Assembly: GCA_965198795.1 (NCBI GenBank)
Contig: OZ240674.1
Span: 1,540,522 to 1,604,521 of the forward strand
Direction: 5' to 3'
Length of the DNA stretch: 64,000 nucleotides
Origin: Rhodospirillales bacterium
GTDB lineage: Bacteria > Pseudomonadota > Alphaproteobacteria > Rhodospirillales > Casp-alpha2
Shown: positions 11,367 to 64,000 of the stretch, one piece after another
Layout of the letters: each line of letters begins with the position of its first letter
Position numbering within the stretch: the stretch's first letter is position 1
Notes under the pieces: model-generated
Seen by the model: the letters and a program-made list of their open reading frames with translations, nothing else
Database searches by the model: none
Told to the model about the DNA's origin: nothing
Translations under genes and position numbers: made by a program

Positions 11367-14045
11367 TTAACGGATATTGACCAGTTCCTCGAGCAGTTCG
11401 TCAGAGGCGGTAATAACCCGTGTGGCCGCCGAGAAGGCTCGCTGGACGACGATGATTTTGGTGAATTCCTGACCGATATCGACGGTGGACGCCTCGGTCG
11501 AGGACTGGATGATCCGGCCGGCGGGGCCGTTGTTGGCGAACCGCAGCGTCGGGTCGCCAGACGCCTGCGTTGACGTGAAGACGTTGCCGGTTAACGCGTT
11601 CAGTTCGTTCGTGTTGGTGAAGGTGGCGACCGGAATTTGAAAGATCGGCCTCGTTTCACCAGTCGCGAACCGGGCGGTGACAAGCCCGTCCACCCCGATG
11701 GTCACGCCGGAAAATGAGCTAAACTCAGAACCGTCGGCCTGTTGGGAAACCTGTGTAAAGGTGCCGCTGAACTGGACCAAGCCGTTTTGTCCTCCGATGG
11801 TGCCGAAGTCCAGGTCGATCACACGCGTGTTTTCAGGGTCGCCGTCGAAGTTGGCGGCGCCGTTGGTGAGCCCCTCAATCCGGACCTGGTCGACGTTGAA
11901 CGCCGTGGGTATTCCAACCGCGTTGAAGATAATCTCGTTGGTTATGTCCACCACGGTCGGATTGCCCGCGCCGACAGGGATGGTCGAAGAGGGAACATTG
12001 CTGGACACCGTTCGCGGCGCGCCGGCGAAGTTCGAACTGAAGGAGACCTCATAGGGGCCGCTGTCCAGCGCGGACAGGACGAGCGTGTCGTTTGTTATGC
12101 CGGTGTCGGCGTCCTGGTTGGCCGCTCTCAGGCGAACCGTGTTTGAGCCTGCGGCGAATCGCGGATCCTGACCTTCGATCGCGGCCTCCAAATCGGCCAG
12201 AGTTCCGGCAAGATCGCCATTGACAATCGACACTACCAGATCGGCGCCGCTGTCGTCGGCCGCTTCGCCGGTGCCGAAGGTATAGGTGATGTCGTTGATG
12301 GTGATCGTGTCGCCAGTCACCGGTTGCGCCGTAAATTCGAACTGTGTGGTCGGCGCGAAATCGGAGGACACCTGATTCACCGTGAACATCGACCTTTGTT
12401 TTGTCGCCGACACGCCGGCCTCGGTCAACAGGCCGGACGGATCGACGATGATTTCATCCGATCCGTCCTCAACGAACAGAATGGTCGTCGCCGAGGACGG
12501 GGCCTGCCGGATGCGCTGGTTGATCTGGTCATAATCGGAATCGTGCGCGATCACCCTGGCGATCAGGCTGGCCACATCCTGAGCGGCCGTGGTGTTGCCT
12601 GAGACATCGATGATCTGGTTCGTTGCGTTGTTGCGCGAGTCCGTGGTCAAGGCGATCGTTTGCCCCCCCGTCACGGGGGTGCCGGTGGCGAGCAGGTTAA
12701 AGGTGACCGTTTGACCGCCCGTCTGGGGAGTGCCGGTGGCGGTCAAGACGCCGCCGCTGGTCACTCGGACGTTAGCGGTCCCGCCATCTGCGGAGACGCT
12801 GACCACGCTCACGGTCCTGCCGTCGTTCGCATTGCCGAAGCCGGAGAGGGTCAGAACGTCATCGGCGTCCAGGCCCGTGAACGTGCCAGCCGGGGCGCGG
12901 ATCTCGTCGGGGGCGCCGCCAGTGCCCAACACCAGGTCCAGCGTGCTGCCCATCGCAGAGGTGAAGCCCAAGAACCCGCCGCTCCGTTCGACGTCAACGA
13001 ACAAGCCGTTCGGATCGACGTTGGTCACCCTCACGGTCCTGCCGTCGTTCGCATTGCCGAAGTTGGAGAGGGTCAGAATATCACCGACGTTCAGGTCCGA
13101 GAACGTGTCGGCCAGGGCGGTGATCCGGTCGTGGTCGGTGTTGGCGCCGGCGCCCAATTGCAGGTTCAGCGAGTTGGGTCCCGAAGCGGAGAATCTCGAG
13201 AACAAAGACCGGTCGAAGACGTAGGTGACGCCGTCGACGACGACCGATCCGCCATCCGCGGAACGGGTTTTGAATTCCAGCTGACCGGTCGAGGCCGTCG
13301 TGGACGTCACGCCGTTGGTGACGTCCTCGAAAGTCGTCACCGTGGTGCCTTGCCGCGGTTCAAAGCCGAGGCCGAACTGGTTGTCCCGGCCTGTCGCCTC
13401 AAAGAGGAAGCCAATGGAACCGGGGTTGCCCAGGCTGTCGATGATCTGAACGTCGGTCCGGAAAGTATCGCCCGCGTCCGCGTTGGTCGGCAGGTTGGCG
13501 CCGATGGCGATGTTCGTGGTGGCCGTCGCCGTGCCGCCGACCCGCGCCAGATTGATGGTCGTCAGGAAGTCGGTCGAGATGACGTTCACGTTCGGCGTAA
13601 GAATGTCCGTGTTGTTCGGGATGATGTTGCCGAGCGCGTCCGTCGGGAAGCCTTGCAGGTAGAATCCCGCCGTGTTGCGCAGGAAGCCCCGGTTATCCTG
13701 GAAGAACTGACCGGCGCGGGTGAACAGGAAGCTGTCATCCAGGCCCGGAACCGCGGCCTCGTTGACGACGAAGAAACCGCCGCCGGAGATCGCGATGTCG
13801 GTCTGGGACGTGGTGGCCTGCAACAGACCTTGAACGCCCGTGTCGATCCGCGTCGCGCCCTGAACGCCGCCCGCCGAAAACAGCGTCCTGGACGTCTGCT
13901 GGGTGACCAGCGTCTGGAAGTTCACGTCAACGTTTTTATACCCCACCGTGTTGACGTTGACGATATTGTCCGAGAGAGCGCCGAGCGCGCTGGATTGAGC
14001 GGTCAGGCCGGAAACGCCAGAACTCAATGCACCGAAGAGACCCAT
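11367..14045 (-). CDS. flgE: Flagellar hook protein FlgE, oversized (892 aa) with a large central insertion
   Basis: N-terminus MGLFGALSSGVSGLTAQSSALGALSDNIVNVNTVGYK and C-terminus ..STVDIGQEFTKIIVVQRAFSAATRVITASDELLEELVNIR are canonical rod/hook terminal segments. Position is after flgD. Confidence 0.9.
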   Translation of the reverse strand: MGLFGALSSGVSGLTAQSSALGALSDNIVNVNTVGYKNVDVNFQTLVTQQTSRTLFSAGGVQGATRIDTGVQGLLQATTSQTDIAISGGGFFVVNEAAVPGLDDSFLFTRAGQFFQDNRGFLRNTAGFYLQGFPTDALGNIIPNNTDILTPNVNVISTDFLTTINLARVGGTATATTNIAIGANLPTNADAGDTFRTDVQIIDSLGNPGSIGFLFEATGRDNQFGLGFEPRQGTTVTTFEDVTNGVTSTTASTGQLEFKTRSADGGSVVVDGVTYVFDRSLFSRFSASGPNSLNLQLGAGANTDHDRITALADTFSDLNVGDILTLSNFGNANDGRTVRVTNVDPNGLFVDVERSGGFLGFTSAMGSTLDLVLGTGGAPDEIRAPAGTFTGLDADDVLTLSGFGNANDGRTVSVVSVSADGGTANVRVTSGGVLTATGTPQTGGQTVTFNLLATGTPVTGGQTIALTTDSRNNATNQIIDVSGNTTAAQDVASLIARVIAHDSDYDQINQRIRQAPSSATTILFVEDGSDEIIVDPSGLLTEAGVSATKQRSMFTVNQVSSDFAPTTQFEFTAQPVTGDTITINDITYTFGTGEAADDSGADLVVSIVNGDLAGTLADLEAAIEGQDPRFAAGSNTVRLRAANQDADTGITNDTLVLSALDSGPYEVSFSSNFAGAPRTVSSNVPSSTIPVGAGNPTVVDITNEIIFNAVGIPTAFNVDQVRIEGLTNGAANFDGDPENTRVIDLDFGTIGGQNGLVQFSGTFTQVSQQADGSEFSSFSGVTIGVDGLVTARFATGETRPIFQIPVATFTNTNELNALTGNVFTSTQASGDPTLRFANNGPAGRIIQSSTEASTVDIGQEFTKIIVVQRAFSAATRVITASDELLEELVNIR
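12808..13082 (-). repeat. 222-bp (74-aa) tandem duplication inside the flgE insertion
   Basis: A 33-nt identical core ctcacggtcctgccgtcgttcgcattgccgaag at 12808..12840 and 13030..13062, followed after 2 mismatches by ggagagggtcagaa. It encodes LTLS[NG]FGNANDGRTV[RS]V. Confidence 0.9.
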
Positions 14046-14166
14046 CTTTCTATCTCCTTGTTTTGACCGGCGTATTCACCGGCAAATCCTTTAACCAAAG
14101 TTCCAAAACTCGACCGGTTGCAGCCGGCTTATTCGAATTCCGTTGGCTCATAGCCCGTTGGACCGT

Positions 14167-15129: not shown

Positions 15130-15163
15130 GACCTGTTCGCTCTCTCGTTTCCGTGGTTACCGT

Positions 15164-48829: not shown

Positions 48830-48907
48830 CCCGATTGGGTGCCGTCAGAAGGATTGCGCCTACGGGGCAAGAACGCCCTCTCAAATACTCTAGAAAGGAG
48901 TAGACTT

Positions 48908-50323: not shown

Positions 50324-50361
50324 CTCCGTCGGCGGAAAGACCGCCGGCGGAGTTTCGTTTT
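50324..50361 (+). terminator. Intrinsic terminator after flagellin (possibly bidirectional)
   Basis: Stem ctccgtcggcgg / ccgccggcggag (one G-U pair), loop aaaga, then tttcgtttt. A second hairpin gaaggcg-cttt-cgccttc lies at 50287..50304. Confidence 0.7.
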
Positions 50362-51878
50362 CAAGCCGGGCCGTAAAGAGCGTCAACCATTTGTTTGACG
50401 GCTGACTCCCAATCCGATGGCGCTTCTTGACGGAAGAGCCGCGTCGCCGGATACCAAGGTGTTGTCCCGCCCGTTTGACCCCAGCGCCAATCGGCGACGA
50501 ACGGCAGCACGATCCAGGTCGTCAGGCCCATAGCGCCGGACAGGTGGGCGGCCGACGTGTCGACGGAGATGGTCAGGTCCAGCTTCGCCATCAACTTCGC
50601 CGTATCCGCGTAGTCCCTCAGCCCTTCAGACCAGTCGTCGAGTTTTCCGGCGAGGCCCTCAACGGAAATCTCTCCGGCGCCCCCCATTTGCAGGCTGACC
50701 CACCGCGCGCTGGTTCCATTGATCAGTGGCTTCAGAAAAGAGAGAGGCATGGATCTCTCCGCATCGGCCCGATGTTCGGGATTTCCGCGCCAAACCAGGC
50801 CGATTTTTTCGGGAGGCCAAGCCGGCGTTTTGATGTCCGGGCGCTCAAGATAGGGGGCGGGCGGCGAGTCGGAGGGAGACGGTTTTCCTAAAAGAAGCGG
50901 GAGGCTCATCAAAGGAACATGAAAGTCGGTTCGCGTCCGGATACGGGGAACATCCGAGGAATGGACGCCGTCGGCGCCGGACACGCCGGCCAAAAGGCGC
51001 GCGAGGGACGGCGGGCACACAAACTCGACGCGCCGGCAGCGTTCCCGAAGCGCCGCGAGATAGCGGACGAATTGAATGGTGTCGCCTTGACCCTGCTCGG
51101 CGTACACGCAAACGGATTTGCCTTCGACCGGCTGGCCGGTCCAAGGCTCCGCCTTCTCGACGCCCAATGGCGGAACAAGCAACCGCCGCCGCGCCTCAAA
51201 GGCTCTGTATCCGTCCTCCCACCGTTCAAGGCAAAGCAACGTCTGGGCTTTGTTCCATTGTGCGAGAAACGAGCCAGGATCCATTCGGGCCGCCTTTTCA
51301 AGCGTCTCGCACGCGGCCTCGAATTGGCCCAGGCGCTGTTGGCATAAACCCAGATTTATCAATAAGCTGGCGTCGTCCCGAATCCGCGCTGAAGCGTTCT
51401 CGAAATCGGTCAGGGCGTCGTGAAGCCGGTTCATGCGGTAGAACGCGTTTCCCCGATTGAATAACGCGCGTCCATGACGGGGGTCTTGCCGGATAATTTG
51501 GCTGAAGCCATTGATCGCGGCGGTGAAATCTCCGGCGTCATACGAGAGTCTGGCCAGATTAAACAAGGCGTCGCGATGGCCGGGATTGAATTCAACGGCT
51601 TTCTTCCATTGAGCCCGGGCGTCATGAGTCCGGTTCTGTGATTTCAGACAGACCCCGTAATTGTAGTGAATGTCTGATCTGCCGGGCAGGCGGACGAGAG
51701 CGTCTTCGTATAGCCCGGCGGCTTTCTCATGCTCGCCTTCCCGGTCCGCCAACACGGCCGACAGGTAAAAGGCTTCCGAAACGTCAGCGCCGCAAAGAGC
51801 GTCCGCGAGCTTTCGGGCTTCCCGCCTTTCTCCCGAGATTATGAGCCGCCTCAAATCGCCGACCCGGGGGGATGTCAT
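50361..51878 (-). CDS. TPR-repeat protein fused to a GT9-like GT-B glycosyltransferase domain (paralog of 17322..18860)
   Basis: TPR repeats in the N-terminal half. ..GQGDTIQFVRYL.. and ..TISVDTSAAHLSGAMGLTTWIVLPFVADWRWGQTGGTTPWY... Its start overlaps the maf stop. Confidence 0.6.
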   Translation of the reverse strand: MTSPRVGDLRRLIISGERREARKLADALCGADVSEAFYLSAVLADREGEHEKAAGLYEDALVRLPGRSDIHYNYGVCLKSQNRTHDARAQWKKAVEFNPGHRDALFNLARLSYDAGDFTAAINGFSQIIRQDPRHGRALFNRGNAFYRMNRLHDALTDFENASARIRDDASLLINLGLCQQRLGQFEAACETLEKAARMDPGSFLAQWNKAQTLLCLERWEDGYRAFEARRRLLVPPLGVEKAEPWTGQPVEGKSVCVYAEQGQGDTIQFVRYLAALRERCRRVEFVCPPSLARLLAGVSGADGVHSSDVPRIRTRTDFHVPLMSLPLLLGKPSPSDSPPAPYLERPDIKTPAWPPEKIGLVWRGNPEHRADAERSMPLSFLKPLINGTSARWVSLQMGGAGEISVEGLAGKLDDWSEGLRDYADTAKLMAKLDLTISVDTSAAHLSGAMGLTTWIVLPFVADWRWGQTGGTTPWYPATRLFRQEAPSDWESAVKQMVDALYGPA

Positions 51879-53869
51879 GAGGTGAAGGCCCCCTCGAAGA
51901 TGTCCTCTCCGTTATAAGCGGAAAGGTCCAGAATCTCTCCCCGGTCAAGAGCCTCGAAATTGATCCTGGCTTTTTCGGTCATCAGATCGATCACTGCGCA
52001 AGCTTCGTTGACGAACAGTTCCCGGAGCCGCTCCCGCTGGCTGTCTTCCACGCGGCTCATGTAGTAGTCGGCGCCGATGTTCATCATGTGGTAAGTGCCC
52101 CGCGTCATCATCGCGGCGAACAACTCCAGTCCCTCTTTCGGCTCCAAAAGGAGCGCCGAGGATTTGACTTGAAAATCCGGTCCATCAAGATGTCCCGCGT
52201 TCCGGAACGCGTCCTTGTAGGCGCCGGCCAGTGTTTCCAGAGACGCGAGCGTTTCTTGAACATTCCAGCAAGCGGCGAACATTTCCTCGGTGAATTCGCC
52301 GAAACTCTCGACAATATCGTTCGTCACTTCCGATTTATCCTTATCCAATGGAGCGAGATCCAGACCGCCGCCCAGCTTCGCGGTGGCGCCGTTCACGTAA
52401 ACGCCGTCGCTGCAATTGAACACCTTGCATCGTTTGTAGCGGTTTATCGCGCGTTGGAGCGAGTCCCGCGCCCAAAATAAGCCGTGAAAAGTATACGCCC
52501 TGCCCCCGAAATTGCCCGGAAGCTCGATACTGAAATCAGGATCCCAGTGGGGAGCGTCCTTTGAGTAATGGTAAACGTCGCCGTGGTGATGACGCTGGCC
52601 TTTCTTGCCCATATCAACGCCGAACATATAGATTTTCCTGAAATCCGCCGACTGAAGGAAAGAAAGCGCCGCGTTGGCCACGGTTGGGTCGGGATCCTCC
52701 AGGGTATGATTGACGTCGTTGCTGAACAGAGCGAACGGGGACAATCCCTGCCTGAAGAAGTAAACGCACCGCTTAAATATTCCCTTGATTTTCAAATCCA
52801 CCGTGACGGGACCGAGAAAAACGATGTCCGACAGGTCAAATTCGCCCGCCGCGTAATTAATGGTTTTATCGACGTCGAGGTTTTCAAGTTCGATATGGAT
52901 GTCGGGTCTGACGCCGGCGCGCAGCAGCGGCATCAGGGCGGTTCCGCAAGAGACAATCAGCGCGTTATTTTGCTGTTCCTTGATCGTCTCGAGATCATTT
53001 GATAGAGACGGACCCGAACCGATTAAAAAAACCGGAATGTTATCTTTATTTTTGTATCTCCGTGTAAATATTCGTGGCCGCCCACTCTTCAGGTTTGTGC
53101 AAGTATTGCTGATCATAAGGTTTTCATCATAGAAAAACCCAAGACCGGAAAGGTAAAGTCTCATGTTTTCCCTGAAATGATATGCCGATTTTTCCAAGAA
53201 AGGAGATTTATAGAGTTGAAATATGGAAACCCCATCCAGGGCGCAGGGATTATGAACTCTGGTCCGGTATCGAAAAATTTCAGCAAAATCGTTATCATTA
53301 TTTGATGGTAATAAAAACAAGTCCACATTATTATCTTGTAATTTTTGCAACAGGGAAAACCAATCCAGGACCGTCACGGAGTGAAAAACAAGTTCAAGGT
53401 TCGGCTCCTGGATCAATATATTGCGGGCGCGAAGCGTGTCGGCCAACTCTTCGATGTGAAGCCCGAGACCCAGGCCAAATAAGCATACATAGTATGAGTC
53501 GGTTGATTTTCTGTTTGGAGAAAACTGAATATTTTCCTCCTCTGCGGCGTCCAACACATTCTTCATGACGCGGCCCGCGTAACTGTCGAACGACGTCGGT
53601 TCTATTTTGTCTAGAGCTATTCTTGTGGGAGTCTCGAAAAAAGCGCTGAGCTTTTCGGCGGCGTAAGCTGCAGCGTCGCCGCCGAAAAAGGCCTTGTCCT
53701 GAAAGTAGATATCAAACGAGCCGTCGTCATGGACGCGGAGTTCCGTCTGGGGGGAGAGAGCGTCCAGTTTTTGCGTGACTTCGGGAAATTTTTGGCGGAA
53801 CGCGAAAAGGTTCCGTTCGCGGCGTTCTTCCAAATCTACGCCCCTCAAATTGATCGTCGGTCCACTCAC
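51875..53869 (-). CDS. maf: Motility accessory factor (Maf, DUF115/MptE-like), a putative flagellin nonulosonic-acid transferase
   Basis: ..IPVFLIGSGPSLSNDLETIKEQQNNALIVSCGTALMPLLRAGVRPDIHIELE.. matches the Maf/DUF115 core as I remember it. The roughly 660-aa size is typical of Maf. Confidence 0.75.
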   Translation of the reverse strand: MSGPTINLRGVDLEERRERNLFAFRQKFPEVTQKLDALSPQTELRVHDDGSFDIYFQDKAFFGGDAAAYAAEKLSAFFETPTRIALDKIEPTSFDSYAGRVMKNVLDAAEEENIQFSPNRKSTDSYYVCLFGLGLGLHIEELADTLRARNILIQEPNLELVFHSVTVLDWFSLLQKLQDNNVDLFLLPSNNDNDFAEIFRYRTRVHNPCALDGVSIFQLYKSPFLEKSAYHFRENMRLYLSGLGFFYDENLMISNTCTNLKSGRPRIFTRRYKNKDNIPVFLIGSGPSLSNDLETIKEQQNNALIVSCGTALMPLLRAGVRPDIHIELENLDVDKTINYAAGEFDLSDIVFLGPVTVDLKIKGIFKRCVYFFRQGLSPFALFSNDVNHTLEDPDPTVANAALSFLQSADFRKIYMFGVDMGKKGQRHHHGDVYHYSKDAPHWDPDFSIELPGNFGGRAYTFHGLFWARDSLQRAINRYKRCKVFNCSDGVYVNGATAKLGGGLDLAPLDKDKSEVTNDIVESFGEFTEEMFAACWNVQETLASLETLAGAYKDAFRNAGHLDGPDFQVKSSALLLEPKEGLELFAAMMTRGTYHMMNIGADYYMSRVEDSQRERLRELFVNEACAVIDLMTEKARINFEALDRGEILDLSAYNGEDIFEGAFTS

Positions 53870-54083
53870 GGTCTTAAATCCTTATCAACCATAACAATAC
53901 GACGCCCGCGCCCATGACCGGACGGGTCGATGAAACATTATGACGACCGAGTTAAAAAATGACAAAGAACGGGATATTAAAAAATCATCGATGCTGAAGA
54001 TAAATTCTAAAAAAATAGATTTTTCGTGACTTTTAGGCCGTATCGAATTAAAATCAATCCATTGTTTTATTAGGAGCGTCCTT

Positions 54084-54914
54084 ATGACCGACGGCCCTTC
54101 CATCGCATCCGTTTTCGCCGCCGTTGGGCAGGCCAATCAACGCGCCCAATTTAATATTCAGTTCAACAATCTTCAGAACACCTTGATTCGGCGGTTCAAC
54201 GAAGACGCCGAGGAGGCTGCGGAGACTCCGTTTTCGGTCGAGCGGGAAATCAACATTCTCGAAGACAACCTCGAAGACCTTACAAACGGCGCCTCGGTGC
54301 TGAGGGAGTTCGGCCAAGGGAACGTGAACAACGCTTCACAGTTGCGGTGGCTGTTGGGCCAAGTAGGAGAGCTTTTTGGGACATTCAACAGCGATGACGC
54401 GGTGACGGCGGAAGAAGTAAGCGCGTTCACGGCCCGGCGTGACGCGATCATTCAACAGGTCAACAATCTGACGATTTTCAGCCACCCCGAGATCGTGACG
54501 CCAAATGTCATTCAGGATTTGAGGGACAGCGCCAACCAACTGGCGTCCGTCGAGCCTCAAGCGGGCGCGCTTTCGGATCCGGCCAACGCCGCCGTGTCCG
54601 AACGATTGACGGCGTTTCGAGACCGAATCACCAACGGCGTCCTTATTTTGCGGAATACGGTCGATGTCGTGAATAACCTGGAAAAAGGCATCACGCGGCA
54701 GGTGACTTCAGTGCGAACGCGGCTTACCTCAATCACGCGCGATGAACGACAGCGGCAGGAAACGGAAATCGAGAATCTCAGGGCCCGGCTGGGTAACCAG
54801 TTGCGCGCCATTTCCCTGACCTTCGAAGCCAACAGCGCCCTGGCGGATCAATTGAATGTTCGATTGAATCCGGCCATTCCCGATCCTGGCTCGGTTGTCA
54901 GCATCCTGACGTAA
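54084..54914 (+). CDS. Hypothetical, apparently helix-rich/possibly coiled-coil protein (276 aa), no recognisable family
   Basis: aggag lies 8 nt upstream of the ATG. Coherent composition rich in helix formers. I saw no signal peptide or TM segment. Divergent from maf across an AT-rich spacer. Confidence 0.5.
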   Translation: MTDGPSIASVFAAVGQANQRAQFNIQFNNLQNTLIRRFNEDAEEAAETPFSVEREINILEDNLEDLTNGASVLREFGQGNVNNASQLRWLLGQVGELFGTFNSDDAVTAEEVSAFTARRDAIIQQVNNLTIFSHPEIVTPNVIQDLRDSANQLASVEPQAGALSDPANAAVSERLTAFRDRITNGVLILRNTVDVVNNLEKGITRQVTSVRTRLTSITRDERQRQETEIENLRARLGNQLRAISLTFEANSALADQLNVRLNPAIPDPGSVVSILT

Positions 54915-54984: not shown

Positions 54985-57018
54985 TCAGTCGCCGGTTGAA
55001 CCGGCCAACTCCTCGTGACGGTTAATCAGGAATGTGTCCAGCGTCTGGGCCGTGATCAAGGGCTGGGTCAGGGGGGTGCTGTGCAATTCGCCGCGCAGGT
55101 TTTTTCGCAAGGCGGCCAGAGAATCGGGATCACTGACCAGTTGTTCGATTATGCCGGTCATCTCGCGGCGCGTTTCCCCCGAAAGCTGGCCGTTGGCGGC
55201 GGACATCAACACCCCGGAAGCGATCAATCCGGATAAACATGTTTCGCGATGAGAAACCACCGGCACACCCATAATCAAGGCTTCCGCCGTCCGGTAGCCA
55301 TCCGTGCGTCTTCCAAATTCCAGGAAAATATCGACGCTGGCGAAGAATCCCGGGTTTTTGCCATCGGGTAACGGTTCAACGAAATCCCAATCAAAACAGT
55401 CTTCGACGCCGTGATCGGCGGCGATCCGCCGGATGCGCGCGAATATTTCCTCGTCCCGTTTCGGCCCCCAAAGCACGCGCATTCCGGAACCTTCGAATGT
55501 CCGAAGAATATTTGCGACTTCCTCGAAATCCTGCGGCGTGTAATTGAAGAGATCGGCGCGCATACCGAAGGTCGGCGCCCCCTTCGCCACGATTGGGGCG
55601 TCGCCGGCCAGCGGGGACAACGCCTGCGATCCGGTCGTCCAAACGCCCAAAGGCGCGGCGACCAAATGGATGGAATCACGCGCGACCGCCGGCAGAGCGG
55701 CGACGTCGTGTTCGTACGCCAAAAATGAGTTGATGCCGGGCAGGGGGAAGCCATGCTTGAATGGCGGCCAGCACACTCGCATGGGTGCGTCGCTCCGCAG
55801 AAAAAGCTGAGGTCTGGATGGTTCCGTCGATATGGTCGCATCGATCAGAACATCGAGACCATCATTCTTCATTATGAGAGCGACAACTTCATCGTCGAGA
55901 TCTTGGATCTTGCGTGACTGGCTGGCCAATTCGCGCAACTTTTTTGTCATCTCGTCCGAAGACACGCTGTCTTCGTACAAGTGGACCTCGCAGCGGGTTT
56001 TGTTGTGTCCACCCAGAAAATCAGACAAAAACCGGGTCTCTTCGCAATGGTGGGTGGCGTTGGTGAGGTAACCGATGACCAAACGGCGTCCATTGAGAGG
56101 GGCCGGAGCCGGAGGCTCCTTTTCCACACTCAAGGGCGCTCTCTCGTGCATGGCGTCAAGGAAGAGTCGCGCCTCATCCGGATGCGTCGCCGTGAGGCAG
56201 GAACCGCGGACCGCTATCCGGCAAGACAACTCAAAAGAGTCGGGATCAAGTTTCAATGCCTCGCGATGCTGGAGAACGCCTTCCTCGATCTCTCCAATTT
56301 CATAACAGGCTTCGCCCAGCCAATAGCGGAACTCGGCGTTGTTCATGTCCTTTTTCACGCCATGGCTCAGCACGCCGAGCGCTTCCTTGTACAGACCATT
56401 GGTTTGATAGAGCTTTCCAACCGCCAGCAGACAGTCCAAATGGTCGGGATTCAGCCTGAGTTCACGAAGAAACCTGATTTCCGCCTCTTTGAAATCGCGT
56501 TTATCCGCGAACCTGACGCCCCGCGCGTAATCAAGAGACGGTCTTACTTCGGCGGCGGCGTTATAAAATCCCGTCAAATAGTCAGGCAGAAGCCCCTCAA
56601 TCTCGGGATGCGGTTCAAGCACGGTGGACAATTTGGCGAAATAAACGCCATCCGATAGATTTCCGACTTTAGTGTTAAGATTGGCCAGGGCCTCCGCGTA
56701 CTCGTACCTTTCAGGGTCCAGTTCATGAGCCTGCTTAAGAAAAGCTAGAGCACGGCCTTCCTCGCCGAGTTTTACGCTGGCCAGTCCCATAATGAAATAA
56801 AGTTCGGGAGCATCTGGATAGTTCCGAATTTCGACAGCGACTCTGTTTACGACTGTCTCCGTCTCGTCATTTTGGAGTCCTTCCAGAAGCTCGCGGATCA
56901 ATTCCAGGTAAGACAGCTCGGGAGCGATTGTTTCCGACATTTCCGACCCGCCCCCGTCAGACGCGATTCGTCCGGATGATGCGGATTTTTGTCTCGCGCC
57001 ACATGATTTTATGCTCAA
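54985..57018 (-). CDS. TPR-repeat protein fused to a GT41 (SPINDLY/O-GlcNAc-transferase-like) domain
   Basis: TPR repeats (..YFIMGLASVKLGEEGRALAFLKQAHELDP..). C-terminal ..TAEALIMGVPVVSHRETCLSGLIASGVL..LVSDPDSLAALRKNLRGEL..PL.. resembles the COG3914-type OGT C-terminus. Confidence 0.6.
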   Translation of the reverse strand: MSIKSCGARQKSASSGRIASDGGGSEMSETIAPELSYLELIRELLEGLQNDETETVVNRVAVEIRNYPDAPELYFIMGLASVKLGEEGRALAFLKQAHELDPERYEYAEALANLNTKVGNLSDGVYFAKLSTVLEPHPEIEGLLPDYLTGFYNAAAEVRPSLDYARGVRFADKRDFKEAEIRFLRELRLNPDHLDCLLAVGKLYQTNGLYKEALGVLSHGVKKDMNNAEFRYWLGEACYEIGEIEEGVLQHREALKLDPDSFELSCRIAVRGSCLTATHPDEARLFLDAMHERAPLSVEKEPPAPAPLNGRRLVIGYLTNATHHCEETRFLSDFLGGHNKTRCEVHLYEDSVSSDEMTKKLRELASQSRKIQDLDDEVVALIMKNDGLDVLIDATISTEPSRPQLFLRSDAPMRVCWPPFKHGFPLPGINSFLAYEHDVAALPAVARDSIHLVAAPLGVWTTGSQALSPLAGDAPIVAKGAPTFGMRADLFNYTPQDFEEVANILRTFEGSGMRVLWGPKRDEEIFARIRRIAADHGVEDCFDWDFVEPLPDGKNPGFFASVDIFLEFGRRTDGYRTAEALIMGVPVVSHRETCLSGLIASGVLMSAANGQLSGETRREMTGIIEQLVSDPDSLAALRKNLRGELHSTPLTQPLITAQTLDTFLINRHEELAGSTGD

Positions 57019-57020
57019 TT

Positions 57021-57575
57021 CTAAATTTCAGCGTCAATGTGAAGGCGGGAAGGGGCTGAATTTTGGGATTGTTCCGCCTCGACCGGTTCTTCAACCGGAG
57101 CCGCCAACTGTTTTTGTTGAACCTCAACGCTTGAGGCGGAGGCGTTTGAGAGAGACGCAACGAGACCGGCCGCGATGTTTCGGTTGATGTCGATCAGAAC
57201 ATTCATCATCTCCGCCGTGGGTTTGACCATCGCGGCGACCATGTGTTTGTCGATGAATTTGCAAAGCGTCAACATGTTGATCCGCAATTCGGGCGGCACT
57301 TCGGAGCGGTCAGTCGTCAATTCCGCCTGAAAGATTGTCCAAAGACGCCAATTCAGCCGCAAGGCCTGCCGTCTTTCTTGTTTCGATTTTTTTTCGTCGT
57401 TGGGATGCGAGGTTAATGAGAGGGTCATTCGCTTTGCGGCCTCGACGAGGGCCCACGCCTCTGTGCGGGTTGGGTTCCCGGCGATAGGCCGTTGATCGTA
57501 TTTTTTAACCTGCTTGTGATGAGGAGGCATTTCTTGTCTCGTGTCGTCGTCTTCTTGGCTAGCGTTGGTGAACAT
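57021..57575 (-). CDS. flaF: Flagellar biosynthesis regulator FlaF (start may be the internal MPPHH at 57530)
   Basis: ..RTEAWALVEAAKRMT..RRQALRLNWRLWTIFQAELTTDRSEVPPELRINMLTLCKFIDKHM.. fits the FlaF pattern. Position is right after flgL. Confidence 0.7.
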   Translation of the reverse strand: MFTNASQEDDDTRQEMPPHHKQVKKYDQRPIAGNPTRTEAWALVEAAKRMTLSLTSHPNDEKKSKQERRQALRLNWRLWTIFQAELTTDRSEVPPELRINMLTLCKFIDKHMVAAMVKPTAEMMNVLIDINRNIAAGLVASLSNASASSVEVQQKQLAAPVEEPVEAEQSQNSAPSRLHIDAEI

Positions 57576-57647: not shown

Positions 57648-60600
57648 TTACAGGAATTGGAGGAGTGACAATTGCCGGACACGGGAGAAGGTTTGATATG
57701 ACGTTTCCAGTAAACGCTGTTCATTCAAAAGGTTAGTAATGGACTCCAGACGGTCCGCGTTTTCGACTCCCGCGATGCTGGTCTCGAAGAAATCAACAAG
57801 GTCTTCCGAGCGCTTGTTGGTGTCTTTGATGAGCACTCGATTGAACGCAAGCTCCATACGAAGCGTATCTACGTTGTCATTCAATTCCTCGCCGAACGGC
57901 GGCGGTTCGGTGTTCGTCGAGTCAAGCGCGTCGTTCAATAAGTAGAGCGCCTGCGTGACGCGCTCCGGATTCTGGTCCAGGCCGCCCTCGGAGCCATATT
58001 CTCCTTGCAGGATCAGGCGAGCCGCCCGAATGGCTTTTTCGAAGGCGGGGTTCGACGCATTGACGTCGAACTCGATCAATCTGTCGTTGCTTATCCTTTG
58101 ATTAATTGAGAGGTTGTCGCCGTTATAATAGGAATTGGCGGTGATGGCGCCGGATGTTAGCGGCGACGAGAGAAAGCCCGTGGTCGCGGAGCCCGTCGCC
58201 ATCACATCGTCACTCGACATTAAGGTGGCGGTGCTTCCGTCCGTCGAAACCGATTGAATGGTAAAGGTCAAACCGTCATTCGTGGTGCCCGTCCCGAGCA
58301 CTGTGAATTGCGTCCCGGCGGCCAAAAGATTGCCATCGGAGTCCCGGAAATCGCCATTCGACAAAGTGATCGAGTCCGCCGAGCCGCCGCCTTCCGTAAA
58401 GGTTATCGCTTGCTGAACGGTGGCCGCGCCGGTGCTTCGAAGGTTCTCGTTCGTCAGTGTGTCTCCGGTGACCAGCGTCGCGACATTACCCGCCGCATTC
58501 AAGCTCGCGATGGTGAAGGTGCCGTTGTTGTTGGCGGAGCCGGTAATGGTTATCCGGGTGTTCGCCCGCAGAGGATTTCCGTTCGAGTCCGTGAATGTTC
58601 CGTTGGACAGTGTGATCGTATCGGCGCTTGGGTTATTGTCGCTAAATGTGAATGACGGCACAGTAGTGACCGAACCTGCGGCTGTGGCGTCCGTTATGGT
58701 CAGAGCCGGCGAGCCGGCCAGGTCCGCTGTCCTGTTGTTGTTGCTAAGCGACGTGATGGTGAATATCCGGCCATCATTGGCGGTGCCCGTGCCGGCGACC
58801 TGGATCTGAGTTCCCGGCGGCAACGGCGCGCCGGATGAGTCCACGAATGATCCTCCGTTTGACAGGGTGATCCTGTTTGAGCCCAAGTTGGTAAAGGCGA
58901 TATCCGCCGCCGCCGGCGCGTTAAACATGAAGTTCGACGCGGCGGCGGCGTTGAACGTAAAGATCGGCGGGGCTGACGTATCAAATTGCGTCGCCGTATC
59001 CGCGTTGGACAGCGTGCCGGCGACACCCGCGACAGCAGTCACGGAGTCACCGCTTGATAGAGTGATCGTCGCGCCATTGGCCGAAATACCGGCGATGGTG
59101 AACACCTGGTTTCGGTTTGCGCCGGTCGCGGCGCCGCCGACACGGATTCGCTGTCCGATTTCGAAATTACTGAAGACATTGAGAGCGGGACTTGCGGTGA
59201 TCGTGTCCGCATCGGGAGCGTTGTCGTTGAACGTAATGGTCACGTCGGCCTGAAGGTTGGCGGTGTTCGTTGTTTCATTGGTGAGTGTATTCGCCGGTAT
59301 CAATGTCGCTGTCGTTCCATCCGCCGAGACCGAGGCAATGGTGTGCGTAGCGTTGTTCGACATGGTCGTCGTGGTGACGATCTGCGTGCCGCTGGGCAGT
59401 AGATTGCCCAACGAGTCGGTGAAGCGGGCGCCGCCGGTTAATCGAATGGTGTCCGGCGCCGCGCCGTTATCGGTAAAGATCGCCATCTCAGTGCTGGGAG
59501 AGGTGATGGCGAAGGTGAAGACATTGGTGTCGAAGTCAAACGCGTTGGCGCCTTGGATTGTCCCGTTTTGAACAGCGGAGGCCGCGACGACGCTGTCATT
59601 GGCCGAAAGGGTAAGCGTATTGTTGTTGGCGGAGATCGACGCCACGGTGAAGGTGCGCCCGTCGTTGTTCGTCCCGGTGCCTTGAATTTTGATCCTTTGA
59701 CCGACTTCCACCGCGGCGAACGCGTTGGACGCGAGAGGGGCGGTAATACTATCCGGTCCGGCGCCTCCATCGACGAAGTTGATCTGCTGATTGCCGCTAC
59801 CGGCCTTCAGTATCTGGCGTTCGCCCCCTAATGAGGTCAGCCGTTTACTTTGAACTGTCAGATTGGTTCCGTCGTTGGCGGCGACCGTGAAGGTGTTGTT
59901 GTTGCTGGTTGTGCCCGAGATGGCGATCACGCTGCCGACTGGAATGTCGGAAAGAGCGCCAGTTTCCGCCGCTGTGATCGTATTGGTTTGCCGGTCGAAG
60001 GAAACCTCCGCCGTCACGGTTTTATCGACCAGAGGCTCCAAACTTATTGGATAGGTGAATGTGGCGTTCAAGGGGTCGTCCACGGCGCCCGTCTCGTCAG
60101 TCAGTTGTTTGGTGACGACGTCGATGTAAAAGCCGTTCGGATCGACAGCCGCAATTGTGTAAGTCCCGTCATTGACGCCGTTCAAGGTTCCGGAAATGTT
60201 GATCGTGCCGCCGACGTCGGCGTTTTGAAATTGAGCGACGGACGAACTGATCCGGCTGTCGCCGCCACTGGTCGTGCCGGTGAAGGTGAGAAAGTTCGGG
60301 TCAAGAGTGTCAGGGTTGTTATTGATGGTGAAGTCCGCCAGCGCCGCATTGCGGGTCGTTGGAACCGTTACGGTCGAACCATTGAATACGGATTGGAACG
60401 CCGCTTTGGTTGTGAGGCCTAGATCTATGGGTTCGGTTGTCGCTCTGCCGCCTCCGAATATGAAACCGCGGTCGTCCTCGGTGTTCAGCAATCCCTCAAG
60501 ATTCAAGAGCATCCGGAAAGCGTTGTCCTGAATTTTATTTGTCTTGGTTTCGCTGGAAACGCCGAAATTCTGATGATATGTGTTCAGTAGCTTACGAAAA

Positions 60601-60872
60601 TTCCCGATGTCGTCATTGATCCCTTTCAGTGTGGTTTCCTGCACCTTAAGGCGGAGATCGGCAATCTCGTTGTTGGTTTGAAATCTCTCAAGACTGTCGC
60701 GGGTAGTTTCCATATCCAGCAGACGCTGGCTGACGCCGGTCTCCAGACCGCTGTAGACCTGGGCTTTCTTTTGAGATGAGGTCTGTTGATTCAGAGAAAA
60801 TAGATTCGTCTGCGTCAACAACAGCCGGTTAATGATCGCCTGACTGGATGCGAGTGTGCCGAGACGGGTCAT
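57648..60872 (-). CDS. flgL: Hook-filament junction protein FlgL (HAP3), giant 1074-aa form
   Basis: N-terminus MTRLGTLASSQAIINRLLLTQTNLFSLNQQTSSQKKAQVYSGL and C-terminus ..LLNEQRLLETSYQTFSRVRQLSLLQFL are FlgL/flagellin-type termini. Immediately follows flgK. Confidence 0.85.
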   Translation of the reverse strand: MTRLGTLASSQAIINRLLLTQTNLFSLNQQTSSQKKAQVYSGLETGVSQRLLDMETTRDSLERFQTNNEIADLRLKVQETTLKGINDDIGNFRKLLNTYHQNFGVSSETKTNKIQDNAFRMLLNLEGLLNTEDDRGFIFGGGRATTEPIDLGLTTKAAFQSVFNGSTVTVPTTRNAALADFTINNNPDTLDPNFLTFTGTTSGGDSRISSSVAQFQNADVGGTINISGTLNGVNDGTYTIAAVDPNGFYIDVVTKQLTDETGAVDDPLNATFTYPISLEPLVDKTVTAEVSFDRQTNTITAAETGALSDIPVGSVIAISGTTSNNNTFTVAANDGTNLTVQSKRLTSLGGERQILKAGSGNQQINFVDGGAGPDSITAPLASNAFAAVEVGQRIKIQGTGTNNDGRTFTVASISANNNTLTLSANDSVVAASAVQNGTIQGANAFDFDTNVFTFAITSPSTEMAIFTDNGAAPDTIRLTGGARFTDSLGNLLPSGTQIVTTTTMSNNATHTIASVSADGTTATLIPANTLTNETTNTANLQADVTITFNDNAPDADTITASPALNVFSNFEIGQRIRVGGAATGANRNQVFTIAGISANGATITLSSGDSVTAVAGVAGTLSNADTATQFDTSAPPIFTFNAAAASNFMFNAPAAADIAFTNLGSNRITLSNGGSFVDSSGAPLPPGTQIQVAGTGTANDGRIFTITSLSNNNRTADLAGSPALTITDATAAGSVTTVPSFTFSDNNPSADTITLSNGTFTDSNGNPLRANTRITITGSANNNGTFTIASLNAAGNVATLVTGDTLTNENLRSTGAATVQQAITFTEGGGSADSITLSNGDFRDSDGNLLAAGTQFTVLGTGTTNDGLTFTIQSVSTDGSTATLMSSDDVMATGSATTGFLSSPLTSGAITANSYYNGDNLSINQRISNDRLIEFDVNASNPAFEKAIRAARLILQGEYGSEGGLDQNPERVTQALYLLNDALDSTNTEPPPFGEELNDNVDTLRMELAFNRVLIKDTNKRSEDLVDFFETSIAGVENADRLESITNLLNEQRLLETSYQTFSRVRQLSLLQFL
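58217..60280 (-). repeat. Array of at least 8 divergent protein-level repeats (NDG module) forming the FlgL insertion
   Basis: Recurrent pattern [hydrophobic]xxGxxIx[VI]xGTGxxNDGx[FY]T[IV]xSxSxxGxTATL. Examples: GQRIKIQGTGTNNDGRTFTVASISANNNTLTL, GTQIQVAGTGTANDGRIFTITSLSNNNRTADL, GTQFTVLGTGTTNDGLTFTIQSVSTDGSTATL. Coordinates are approximate. Confidence 0.8.
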
Positions 60873-60887
60873 GACATGATCTCCTTC

Positions 60888-63155
60888 CTACAGCACCGAC
60901 CGGGTTAGCTCGTCGATCAAGTCCTGAATGACGCTCAGAACTCTGGCGGCGGCCGAGTAGGCCTGCTCAAGGACGATCAGGTTTGCGAGTTCCTCATCCA
61001 CGTTGACGCCGCGAATGTTGTCGGATTGGAATTGCAGCGCGTTGGTCAGTGTTTTTTGACTGGTTTCAGCCGTCTCGTTGGCTTGCGCGAGCGACGAGCT
61101 TCTGCCGACGACGGCTGCGCCAAAATCAGCGAAATTAAGATTCAAGTTCGGTAATCCGCCCGCGGCTTCAAAGCTGTTCGCCGATTCCAACGTGTCGGCG
61201 AGCGCTTCGATGTTGGCGTTGTCCGCGGACGAAACCCGATATTGCCCCGCCGCCCCGATGGCGGAGTCAAACCGCACTTGCCCACGGGCCACCTTGCCCG
61301 GGTTGGCGACAATATCATTACGGATGGAAAGGGCGGATGCGCGGCCCGAACGGGCGGGCTCCAAGGCTAAATTGCCGAGAAAGGTCTGCCCCGCCGCCTG
61401 CGTAATGGTGAGGGCTGAGCCCTCATCGTGTTTGACGCGCAGCCGAACGCCGCTTGCCTCATGAATAATCGCGGCCGTGACTTGAGGAATGTTATCGGTG
61501 ATCAAACTCGCCAGTTCCGTCAGGGACGTCCCCGCCGGAACCGTCAAAGGCGTCGCGGACGCGTCAAAAGCCGTCGATGGAGCCGGAGTGTCGGCGCCCA
61601 GGAAACCATCATTGGTGAAGAATGTTAAGGTGCCCGCTGTTGTCGTAAATCCTGGGGATAGCAGCTGGCTGTCAAACGAGTTGGGGGCGAGGTTGTCAAC
61701 CACCAGATCGTTCAGCCCGAGGAAGCTGGAGAACCCGTTAATTGTTTCGTCGATGAAGGTATCCCCGTTCGGATCAAAGGAAATGACCGCATCCTCATGT
61801 GCGCCGCCGGGCGTTCGGCCGGCTTCATCCCGGATTGCGAGATTCAGATTCGGTTGTGAAAGGTTGATGTTGAAACGTCCGTCGTCTGTGAGCCGCGCCG
61901 CCGCTTGGGGCGCGCCGCTGGCTTGAAGGTAGTCTTCCAGCCGGGCCCCGAACTCAACGATGGTGATCGGGCCGTTCCCGGCGTTTGTGCCGTCCCCCAA
62001 TGTTGTCGTGCCCGACCTGCCCGTGAGAATCTCGGAAAGCCTGATCTCGCTCTGTTGATTGCCCGCGCCGTCGAGCAATACAAAAACGGTGTCGTCGTTC
62101 GCGTCGATGGAAAATTGCGGCGTGATGTTGGCCGTGCTGTTGAGGTTAAAGACCCGTGTGCCTTCGAACGATTGATAACCAGGGAACGCAACGCCGCGAT
62201 TGTGAACCTGGTTGATCGTGGTCTGGAGTTCCGCCGCGAGTTCGTCCAACTGACTTTGCAGATTTGGTAAAACATTATCGCGAATGTCCACCAAGCCGCC
62301 CAGGATGCCGCCGCGATTCAGGTCGGCGGTAATGTCGTTGGACAAGTTCGCCCGAGGCCCGACGAATATCCCATCAATCTCGCCGCCGGACACGGTGGCG
62401 GTCGGGGTGATCACCGCAGCGGCCGTGTGGGTAATTGCCGGCGGGATGGTGTCGACGAGTGTTTTACCGGATTTCGTGAAGACGACGACATCACCATCGT
62501 TTCGCGAAAAAGTCTGGATTTCCAGAATTTCGGCGATGCGGTCCAGTGAATTGTCACGGGCGTCTTCCAACTCGCTTGTATCAGAGCCGATGGAACGAAT
62601 GGAAATAATGTCGTCATTGGATTGATCCACGTCCTGCACAAGCCGGTTCAATTCAGTCACGAGATTGGTGATGTCCTGGTCCGCCCTAAGGCGCAGATCC
62701 TGCGCCAAATTGGATAGATCCCTTAGGTTCTTGAAAACGTTTTCGGCTTGGCGCACGAAATTGCCCTGCTCCACGGACCGGTTCGGCGTGGCGGACAGCA
62801 GTTCGGCGGAGTTCTGAAATTTCTCAAGAATATGGCTGAGCGAGGTGTTGTTCCCGGGTGACCCAAAGGCTTCCTGAAGCCGGTCGAAGAATGGGCTTTT
62901 AGAGGTCAGAAAGTTCAGCTCCGACATTTCATCCCGCACGCGCTTGAGCAGGTTATTGTCGATGGCGCGGTTGATTTCGCCGAGCCGCACACCGGCGGGA
63001 ACGCCGTTAAGGGTCACGGATTTTTGCGTTATGATGCGGCGTGAATAGCCTTCCGTGTTCGCGTTCGCGATATTTTGCGACAGGAACCCAAGGGCTTTCT
63101 GGTTGACCAGCAGGCCGCTGGATGCCGATTGAAGGGCGCTTGTAATACCACCCAT
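60888..63155 (-). CDS. flgK: Hook-associated protein 1 FlgK (755 aa)
   Basis: N-terminus ..ALQSASSGLLVNQKALGFLSQNIANANTEGYSRR.. and C-terminus ..SDNIRGVNVDEELANLIVLEQAYSAAARVLSVIQDLIDEL... Confidence 0.9.
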   Translation of the reverse strand: MGGITSALQSASSGLLVNQKALGFLSQNIANANTEGYSRRIITQKSVTLNGVPAGVRLGEINRAIDNNLLKRVRDEMSELNFLTSKSPFFDRLQEAFGSPGNNTSLSHILEKFQNSAELLSATPNRSVEQGNFVRQAENVFKNLRDLSNLAQDLRLRADQDITNLVTELNRLVQDVDQSNDDIISIRSIGSDTSELEDARDNSLDRIAEILEIQTFSRNDGDVVVFTKSGKTLVDTIPPAITHTAAAVITPTATVSGGEIDGIFVGPRANLSNDITADLNRGGILGGLVDIRDNVLPNLQSQLDELAAELQTTINQVHNRGVAFPGYQSFEGTRVFNLNSTANITPQFSIDANDDTVFVLLDGAGNQQSEIRLSEILTGRSGTTTLGDGTNAGNGPITIVEFGARLEDYLQASGAPQAAARLTDDGRFNINLSQPNLNLAIRDEAGRTPGGAHEDAVISFDPNGDTFIDETINGFSSFLGLNDLVVDNLAPNSFDSQLLSPGFTTTAGTLTFFTNDGFLGADTPAPSTAFDASATPLTVPAGTSLTELASLITDNIPQVTAAIIHEASGVRLRVKHDEGSALTITQAAGQTFLGNLALEPARSGRASALSIRNDIVANPGKVARGQVRFDSAIGAAGQYRVSSADNANIEALADTLESANSFEAAGGLPNLNLNFADFGAAVVGRSSSLAQANETAETSQKTLTNALQFQSDNIRGVNVDEELANLIVLEQAYSAAARVLSVIQDLIDELTRSVL

Positions 63156-63663: not shown

Positions 63664-63987
63664 TTACGCTGCCTCCTGCATTCGAATGAGTTGATCCAGC
63701 ACTTGATCCGCGATGCCGACGCCGCCGCGCTTGGACAGCGCTTTGGCGTATTCGTCGACCTGCATGCTGCTGAAGATGTCTTCCGCCTGGCCGCCGCCGA
63801 ACGGGCTATCGAGCTTCACGCTCTCAAACAGCGGGCGGATCATCTCGGCCAGAAAAACGCTCTCGAAATCCTGAGCGACTTCCCGCATCTTTGCCAGGTT
63901 CAAGTCCTTGACATTGGCTGGTTCGCCATAGGCCCTCAGTTTTTCGGGAGCGGCTTCGCCCTGTTCATGACGCTGAAGTTCGCGCAA
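63664..63987 (-). CDS. flgJ: Rod-binding protein (FlgJ N-terminal domain type, no muramidase domain)
   Basis: ..AQDFESVFLAEMIRPLFESV..FGGGQAEDIFSSMQVDEYAKALSKRGGVGIADQV.. is the Rod_binding motif. TTG start as given by the track; the true start could lie off-window. Confidence 0.7.
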   Translation of the reverse strand: MRELQRHEQGEAAPEKLRAYGEPANVKDLNLAKMREVAQDFESVFLAEMIRPLFESVKLDSPFGGGQAEDIFSSMQVDEYAKALSKRGGVGIADQVLDQLIRMQEAA

Positions 63988-64000
63988 GACCGGCGCCGTG

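Follow-up and report, generated by a model that had tools for sequence, protein, structure and literature searches.

A FlgL protein with eight tandem outer modules in a Rhodospirillales bacterium, and the occurrence of the same module family in the hook protein FlgE

The junction between flagellar hook and filament contains 11 subunits of FlgL (hook-associated protein 3), a stoichiometry established for Salmonella, and the FlgL of Campylobacter jejuni carries a 'bulky D2 domain' (PMC12221982), the D2 domain of FlgL being exposed outside the D1 ring (PMC6155364). Here, we describe the flgL gene of a Rhodospirillales bacterium (GenBank assembly GCA_965198795.1), which lies in an analysed stretch of 64,000 nucleotides (nt) of contig OZ240674.1 (positions 1,540,522 to 1,604,521 of the forward strand; hereafter the window, in which position 1 is the first letter). 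The encoded protein has the helical termini, the position after flgK and the mid-domain, here predicted to face outward, that are known from the FlgL proteins of Xanthomonas campestris (5zj0/5ziz) and C. jejuni (750 amino acids (aa), 9gsx). However, the outer part of Xanthomonas FlgL is a single beta-sandwich of ~100 aa and that of Campylobacter FlgL the one bulky domain mentioned above, whereas here eight small modules take up 718 aa, and this outer region has no detectable sequence match to any solved FlgL outer domain.

A conserved core combined with variable, beta-rich surface domains is likewise found in outer-domain flagellins, such as those of enterohaemorrhagic Escherichia coli H7 and Geovibrio thiophilus (9au6). 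These differ from the present case in that they are filament subunits and employ an Ig-like fold, beta-sandwiches or the hook-associated-protein fold, with no iteration of a single module (PMC11532411); the survey of outer domains from which this is taken includes neither FlgL nor FlgE. Among hook proteins, Campylobacter FlgE has the outer domains D3 and D4, and the FlgE encoded in the window likewise bears an outer insertion of ~430 aa, which differs from its Campylobacter counterpart in consisting partly of the FlgL module family. Outer domains of junction proteins have been proposed to contact the variable D3/D4 domains of FlgE (cited in PMC6155364). The literature searched held no iterated FlgL modules and no domain common to FlgE and FlgL. 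Variable outer domains of axial proteins are well known; an iterated small beta domain of FlgL that occurs also in FlgE is described neither in the literature searched nor in any domain library. The best overall explanation, to which we assign a probability of roughly 0.7, is a FlgL with eight tandem outer modules that would form a coat or collar at the junction, for which glycosylation is proposed.

The gene, the two conserved regions of its product and the neighbours that bear on its identity are as follows:

57648..60872, minus strand: flgL, an open reading frame (ORF) of 1074 codons open from ATG
60881..60885, minus strand: Shine-Dalgarno sequence AGGAG, which follows the flgK stop codon directly and lies 8 nt 5' of the flgL start codon
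60303..60872, minus strand: FlgL N-terminal helical region, aa 1-190, read as D0/D1 (NCBIfam FlgL-type matches at aa 2-183, termini profile, AlphaFold2 helices)
57648..58148, minus strand: FlgL C-terminal region, aa 909-1074, read as D1/D0, plus stop codon (Pfam Flagellin_C, termini profile, AlphaFold2 helices)
60888..63155, minus strand: flgK, 755 aa, immediately upstream of flgL
57021..57575, minus strand: flaF, immediately downstream of flgL
48839-50269: flagellin gene separate from flgL, with Flagellin_N and Flagellin_C matches

Only 15 nt separate the flgK stop from the flgL start, and the operon order in the window, flgJ-like, flgN-like, flgK, flgL and flaF, was also found in 15 of 15 related loci inspected. 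The first and last residues of the protein (MTR... and ...LSLLQFL) are the consensus of 23 homologues, so neither end of the reading frame is truncated. Searched against PDB chains, a profile restricted to the termini (aa 1-190 and 909-1074; 16 family members) matched solved FlgL chains of Legionella pneumophila (5yti, 1.8e-15), the Salmonella junction (9go6_L, 3.6e-11) and the Campylobacter junction (9gsx_A, 2e-8), followed by 7c7z, 3pwx, 2d4x and 5ziz, and no FliC flagellin at E<=1; a phmmer search of PDB with the single FlgL sequence found nothing. The best NCBIfam matches are of FlgL type (PRK08913, 3.3e-21; PRK06008, 8.7e-14; TIGR02550, 2.7e-12). In the full-length AlphaFold2 model, which has a mean predicted local distance difference test score (pLDDT) of 73.6, helices span aa 2-129 and 942-1066, and Foldseek relates this model to the FlgL structures 9gsx, 7c7z, 5yti, 5zj0 and 9go6 as well as to flagellins. 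The protein of 112 kDa is FlgL, encoded by a real and intact ORF, and the view of the initial annotation that canonical FlgL ends flank a long repeat insertion is borne out by the termini profile and the gene order.

FlgL and flagellin have the D0/D1 fold in common, the best NCBIfam match, PRK08913, bears the title 'flagellin', the top Foldseek matches of the full model are outer-domain flagellins such as Geovibrio 9au6, and giant flagellins are present in related loci, all of which would suit a giant flagellin, that is, a filament subunit with outer domains, rather than FlgL. We nevertheless consider this very unlikely, since the termini profile retrieves FlgL chains only, the gene is fixed between flgK and flaF in the relatives inspected, the window encodes a separate flagellin that matches Flagellin_N and Flagellin_C properly, and no other FlgL candidate adjoins flgK.

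Between its conserved ends, FlgL carries an insertion of 718 aa (aa 191-908), composed of eight tandem, divergent copies of one module of 70-85 aa each, with pairwise protein identities of about 35-55%. When FlgL was cut into chunks of 80 aa and these were compared with the whole protein by BLASTP, off-diagonal matches reached E-values as low as 2e-17, with 40-50% identity along ~75 aa, and alignment together with a hidden Markov model (HMM) delimited eight copies, each with an independent E-value of 4e-18 to 3e-28. The HMM count agrees with the initial one of at least eight copies, while the insertion, estimated at roughly 690 aa at the outset, exists as described and is longer than stated. 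All copies were assigned by HMM:

60066..60290, minus strand: module A, aa 195-269, positional counterpart of module 1 in five-copy relatives
59790..60065, minus strand: module B, aa 270-361 (domain core about 291-355)
59487..59789, minus strand: module C with a long tail and linker, aa 362-462
59244..59486, minus strand: module D, aa 463-543
58905..59243, minus strand: module E, aa 544-656, extra relative to five-copy relatives
58653..58904, minus strand: module F, aa 657-740, extra relative to five-copy relatives
58407..58652, minus strand: module G, aa 741-822, extra relative to five-copy relatives; the copy modelled with AlphaFold2
58149..58406, minus strand: module H, aa 823-908, corresponding to the final module of five-copy relatives

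The array has a mass of 72 kDa and an isoelectric point of 4.05; its region is rich in Gly, Ala and Asn, and the Ser+Thr content of the FlgL centre (25.8%) is close to that of the flagellin centre (25.5%). Across 36 copies, hydrophobic positions are conserved in register and just two positions, a Gly and a Thr, are near-invariant, a pattern more in keeping with a structural scaffold than with an enzyme. Pairwise module scores identify modules A, B, C, D and H as the positional counterparts of the five modules in relatives of ~800 aa, with identities of 56-63% for A, B, D and H. Among the extra modules, E is nearest to C (47%), and F and G are nearest to the D/H type (50-55%). Recent duplication was considered as the cause of the size of FlgL and was rejected, as none of the extra copies exceeds 55% identity to another copy. 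As judged from these identities, the module expansion is old or fast-diverging, not recent.

Tandem repeats are well known to cause assembly errors, and an expanded or collapsed repeat, or a fused pseudogene, could in principle conceal a true FlgL of ordinary size. We give this explanation almost no probability. The copies are only 35-55% identical in protein, no DNA repeat within the ORF is longer than 48 nt (at 73% identity), and Tandem Repeats Finder detects just two 8-nt arrays (16-19 nt), neither of them module-sized; with DNA repeats so short and diverged, there is nothing to make an assembler collapse or expand module copies. In addition, the frame is open from conserved start to conserved end, the GC content at third codon positions (GC3) of flgL is uniform with that of flgK, NCBI/ENA lists the identical protein from a 3.12-Mb contig, and independent genomes encode FlgLs with 5-11 copies, including an eight-copy FlgL of ~1070 aa in the related locus L014.

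The structure prediction of one module, which the initial annotation had proposed as a check, yielded a confident all-beta fold: with the 36-copy alignment, AlphaFold2 modelled module G as a six-stranded domain at a pLDDT of 89.2 and a predicted template modelling score (pTM) of 0.79, so that the module is predicted to fold as an independent domain. In the full-length model, eight beta units are separated by spacers with pLDDT <50 (aa 357-362, 440-463, 528-538, 626-653, 727-738 and 810-820), which suggests beads on a flexible string. A stretch of the form ITLSNGxFxDSxGNxL had been noted, separately from the core motif, as often preceding it; the stretch is real, but it comprises the first strands of the same domain, and because the ITLSNG stretch and the NDG motif are its N- and C-terminal halves, there is one domain and not two elements.

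That the module could not be assigned to a named domain has held up in every search. Pfam contains no matching family at E<=5 and NCBIfam nothing relevant, the best E-value in a sequence profile search of PDB was 0.022, and Foldseek found nothing at E<=0.001 in either PDB or BFVD; Phage_attach and NifZ appear as sub-threshold Pfam matches in some module carriers. On these searches, the module is a domain family without a representative in Pfam, NCBIfam or PDB. Its nearest fold neighbour in PDB, a weak one, is the beta-barrel domain of phage endosialidase (E 0.13-0.3, template modelling (TM) score 0.45-0.51, 18-20% identity); the nearest neighbours in BFVD are also weak (E 0.02, TM 0.55-0.6), and other weak ones include phage tail-fibre and baseplate proteins, N-terminal domains of F1-ATPase and ribosomal proteins. 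From these neighbours, the module is read as a small beta-barrel. It resembles the endosialidase barrel (4hiz, 1v0e, 3gvk) in being small, all-beta and at home in an extracellular or tail-fibre context, although the likeness is not significant and homology is not established.

The second axial protein of the window in which the module was recognized is the hook protein:

11367..14045, minus strand: flgE, hook protein of 892 aa, with conserved ends and a central insertion of ~430 aa
12957..13142, minus strand: FlgE module 1, about aa 302-363 (HMM match at ~302-353)
12720..12923, minus strand: FlgE module 2, about aa 375-442 (HMM match at ~374-444)

The initial annotation had seen the same module twice in FlgE, and an HMM built from the eight FlgL copies alone indeed matches FlgE twice, with a whole-protein E-value of 1.2e-9, the next best of the 344 window ORFs reaching 0.18. 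A broader profile of 34 FlgL-derived copies, devoid of FlgE rows, recovered both FlgE copies at 8e-7 and 1e-6. By both profiles, the module is absent from FlgK, the flagellin and every other ORF of the window; in FlgK, this includes the centre between the conserved ends. Repeat statistics unable to support homology between the FlgL and FlgE segments had been named as grounds for abandoning the idea, and they support it: at 35.6 bits, the FlgE centre outscores each of its 2000 composition-matched shuffles, the best of which reaches 10.3. As a recurrent unit of 70-85 aa with in-register similarity, the module is supported by eight FlgL copies at independent E-values of 1e-15 to 1e-28 and by two FlgE copies.

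The same control bears on the notion that the repeats reflect no more than the composition-driven likeness of low-complexity, Ser/Thr/Asn/Gly-rich sequence instead of homologous folded domains. A content of 26% Ser+Thr with abundant Gly, Ala and Asn would agree with it, as would the BLASTP comparison of whole FlgL with itself under composition correction, in which no off-diagonal match appeared at 1e-3. Yet the shuffles stay at or below 10.3 bits, the 36 copies share an in-register pattern of conserved hydrophobic positions, AlphaFold2 gives a confident fold, and 307 protein clusters match at E<=1e-10 among 1.84 billion proteins; in our estimation, hardly any credence is left for low complexity as the cause.

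A further element proposed for FlgE, a 'flagellin-IN-like' stretch, was not recovered, as Pfam at E<=5 lists Flg_bbr_C, Flg_bb_rod and LlgE_F_G_D1 only, without Flagellin_IN (PF07196). The remainder of the FlgE insertion, aa ~450-700, matches no named domain type, and some FlgL relatives (P0037, P0043, P0022) add other repeats to the module, namely repeated stretches of the type 'TVNGVAFNFTA...AAGLVSAINGG'. In their outer regions, axial proteins appear to be mosaics that combine different types of domain. The flgE gene of the window lies with fliK-flgD (11367-17074), ~44 kb from flgK-flgL and with a sugar island in between. At its other edge (63664-64000), the window ends 13 nt past a flgJ-like ORF, and a second flgE just beyond the edge is possible.

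A database search with an HMM of the copies, likewise proposed at the outset, places the protein in a large family. The module profile, searched against 1.84 billion representative proteins, is matched in 1392 protein clusters, 307 of them at E<=1e-10, and the best 150 of the 1392 were classified by their termini. Of these 150, 95 have FlgL termini (375-1324 aa, up to 11 copies; 12 of them 1000 aa or longer), a single one has FlgE termini, with four copies, and the other 54, unmatched to the termini of the window's axial proteins, are fragments and giants of 1300-7547 aa. Some FlgLs are larger than the present one, among them P0057 with 1324 aa and P0046 with 1266 aa and 11 copies; both are encoded directly downstream of flgK, and P0057 is followed by flaF. 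A size range of 300-450 aa, from which the initial annotation had started, is thus too narrow for FlgL, given the 750 aa of Campylobacter FlgL (PDB 9gsx) and module-array FlgLs of up to 1324 aa or 11 copies. Hundreds of module-bearing FlgLs are present in public metagenomes, and some already carry the Joint Genome Institute label FlgL.

In a scan of related loci with one genome per species, 76 loci were obtained, all from metagenome-assembled genomes. Most bear the label Rhodospirillales, Rhodospirillaceae, Thalassospiraceae or Magnetovibrio, and a few that of Hyphomicrobiales or just Alphaproteobacteria or Proteobacteria. Their FlgLs, the best of which is 46% identical to this one, contain 1-8 copies, L014 having eight copies in about 1070 aa. 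The related flgE, which lies ~4.5 kb upstream of flgK-flgL and is cut by the locus edge, has 1-3 copies in >35 loci, which makes the presence of the module in both FlgE and FlgL a trait of the clade. Hence, the claim that both proteins carry one module family stands, but not as a peculiarity of this genome; marine Rhodospirillales commonly have a FlgL with a module array. In three related loci (L055, 11343-15389; L061, 8633-11992; L069, 12304-15837), flaF adjoins a very large flagellin-like ORF of about 1120-1350 aa, and none of the three matches the module profile. In this clade, several axial proteins are enlarged with different domains.

The non-flagellar giants (P0052, P0068, P0079, P0084 and others; 1300-7547 aa) contain 5-16 module copies, and some of the module-bearing giants show an N-terminal 'LEPLEPRLLLSADL' motif. 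When four giants were scanned with Pfam, one had RTX repeats, one DUF4347, one OmpA/BNR and one no match; they look like secreted or surface proteins. The repeats of giant surface proteins, such as the Ig-like BIg domains of RTX-type adhesins, are comparable in that a small beta domain is present in many copies and in variable number. The module differs from these Ig-like families, to which it has no Pfam or NCBIfam sequence match and in place of which its weak fold neighbours are of the barrel type.

How such an array might act at the junction can be proposed as follows. The 190 N-terminal and 166 C-terminal residues of FlgL would form the helical core of the 11-subunit distal junction ring, and the eight modules would sit where other FlgLs and the flagellins bear their variable outer domain. 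The array of 718 aa would then face outward, with about 88 modules (11 x 8) surrounding the junction as a thick, acidic, Ser/Thr-rich coat or collar, continuous with a hook that is itself decorated with modules. This coat may mechanically buffer or shield the junction, and would probably be O-glycosylated by the adjacent Maf and TPR glycosyltransferases with nonulosonic acid supplied by the neighbouring island. In our view, the array is most economically read as a coat or collar that protects the junction or buffers it mechanically, and an unusual junction, a sheath-like layer or a scaffold for glycan display, as first suggested from the sequence, are plausible.

The genes for putative protein glycosyltransferases near flgL and elsewhere in the flagellar cluster are the following:

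51875..53869, minus strand: Maf-family flagellin glycosyltransferase (Pfam)
54985..57018, minus strand: glycosyltransferase with TPR and GT41-like domains (Pfam), right after flaF and syntenic with flgL-flaF across the clade
17322-18860: TPR-GT9 protein

The protein encoded at 54985-57018 has the TPR-plus-glycosyltransferase layout of Caulobacter FlmG (PMC7591256). A fourth TPR protein of the flagellar locus (50361-51878) shows no glycosyltransferase match. A 276-aa ORF (54084-54914, plus strand), which adjoins the TPR glycosyltransferase gene and is also present in many related loci, has no Pfam or NCBIfam match. Around the Maf gene (52001-54000), GC content dips to 0.50, compared with ~0.60 elsewhere in the window, which may indicate horizontal acquisition. 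Inside the flagellar cluster, positions 19377-47998 form a nonulosonic acid island of pseudaminic or legionaminic type. It encodes a NeuB-family synthase (35210-36262), three cytidylyltransferases, two DegT aminotransferases and an epimerase/dehydratase, in addition to an asparagine-synthase-like amidotransferase, a HisF-like gene, a polysaccharide deacetylase, methyltransferases and an acyl-modification set (FkbH-like, AMP-binding, KAS III and SDR-MaoC). The several glycosyltransferases of the flagellar locus could serve several substrates, possibly with FlgL or FlgE among them. The FlgE of Helicobacter pylori carries O-linked pseudaminic acid at three sites (bioRxiv 10.1101/2025.07.13.664564), which provides a precedent for glycosylated axial proteins other than flagellin, and glycosylation of the modules is plausible.

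The presence of the module in RTX-type, DUF4347 and OmpA/BNR giant surface proteins, its nearest, if weak, fold neighbours among the phage endosialidase barrel and tail-fibre/baseplate proteins, and a pathway for sialic-acid-like sugars encoded nearby also invite a different reading, in which lectin-like barrels make up an adhesin or ligand-binding array whose targets would be surfaces or the nonulosonic-acid glycans that the cell itself carries on its flagellin. We regard this as unlikely, although not negligible: the fold matches are not significant, with none at E<=0.001, no conserved polar pocket is evident where Gly and Thr alone are near-invariant, and a mere 11 FlgL subunits per flagellum, located at a rotating joint, would be an odd place for an adhesin.

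Several points weigh against a FlgL with a glycosylated outer coat or collar as the preferred explanation. The NCBIfam FlgL matches fall below the curated cut-offs (TIGR02550, 46.7 versus 127.2 bits), the scores being far under these equivalog thresholds because only the N-terminal ~180 aa align, and Pfam Flagellin_C at aa 996-1074 is sub-threshold as well (E 0.0028, 18.4 versus 23 bits). The near-invariance of Gly and Thr in the module offers no clue to function, and the predicted arrangement of the modules is unreliable (pTM 0.50), such that the model does not decide between a collar and floppy tentacles. The literature searched contains no report of FlgL glycosylation, and in Caulobacter, loss of NeuB left the export of hook protein (FlgE) unaffected (PMC7591256).

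The known logic of flagellar assembly is unchanged by this FlgL. With 11 subunits of 112 kDa, its junction ring would amount to ~1.2 MDa, compared with 11 x 317 residues in the case of Salmonella FlgL. A more speculative extension of the coat or collar, to which we give a slim chance, is a single outer coat continuous between FlgE and FlgL, held by module-module contacts and/or lectin-like binding of the barrels to nonulosonic-acid glycans of the flagellum itself, in which the 88 FlgL modules would act as a clamp or collar. If this is true, the flagellum would have a novel structural element, a glycan-mediated clamp or collar that reinforces the transition from hook to filament and consists of a domain family not described before. 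While the outer domains of flagellins have been surveyed, the junction and hook proteins lie outside that survey (PMC11532411), and the module, present in 1-11 copies in FlgL and common to two axial proteins and giant surface proteins, is a domain family to be curated. The locus also frames the question whether hook and junction proteins, besides flagellins, are substrates of Maf/FlmG-type glycosyltransferases.

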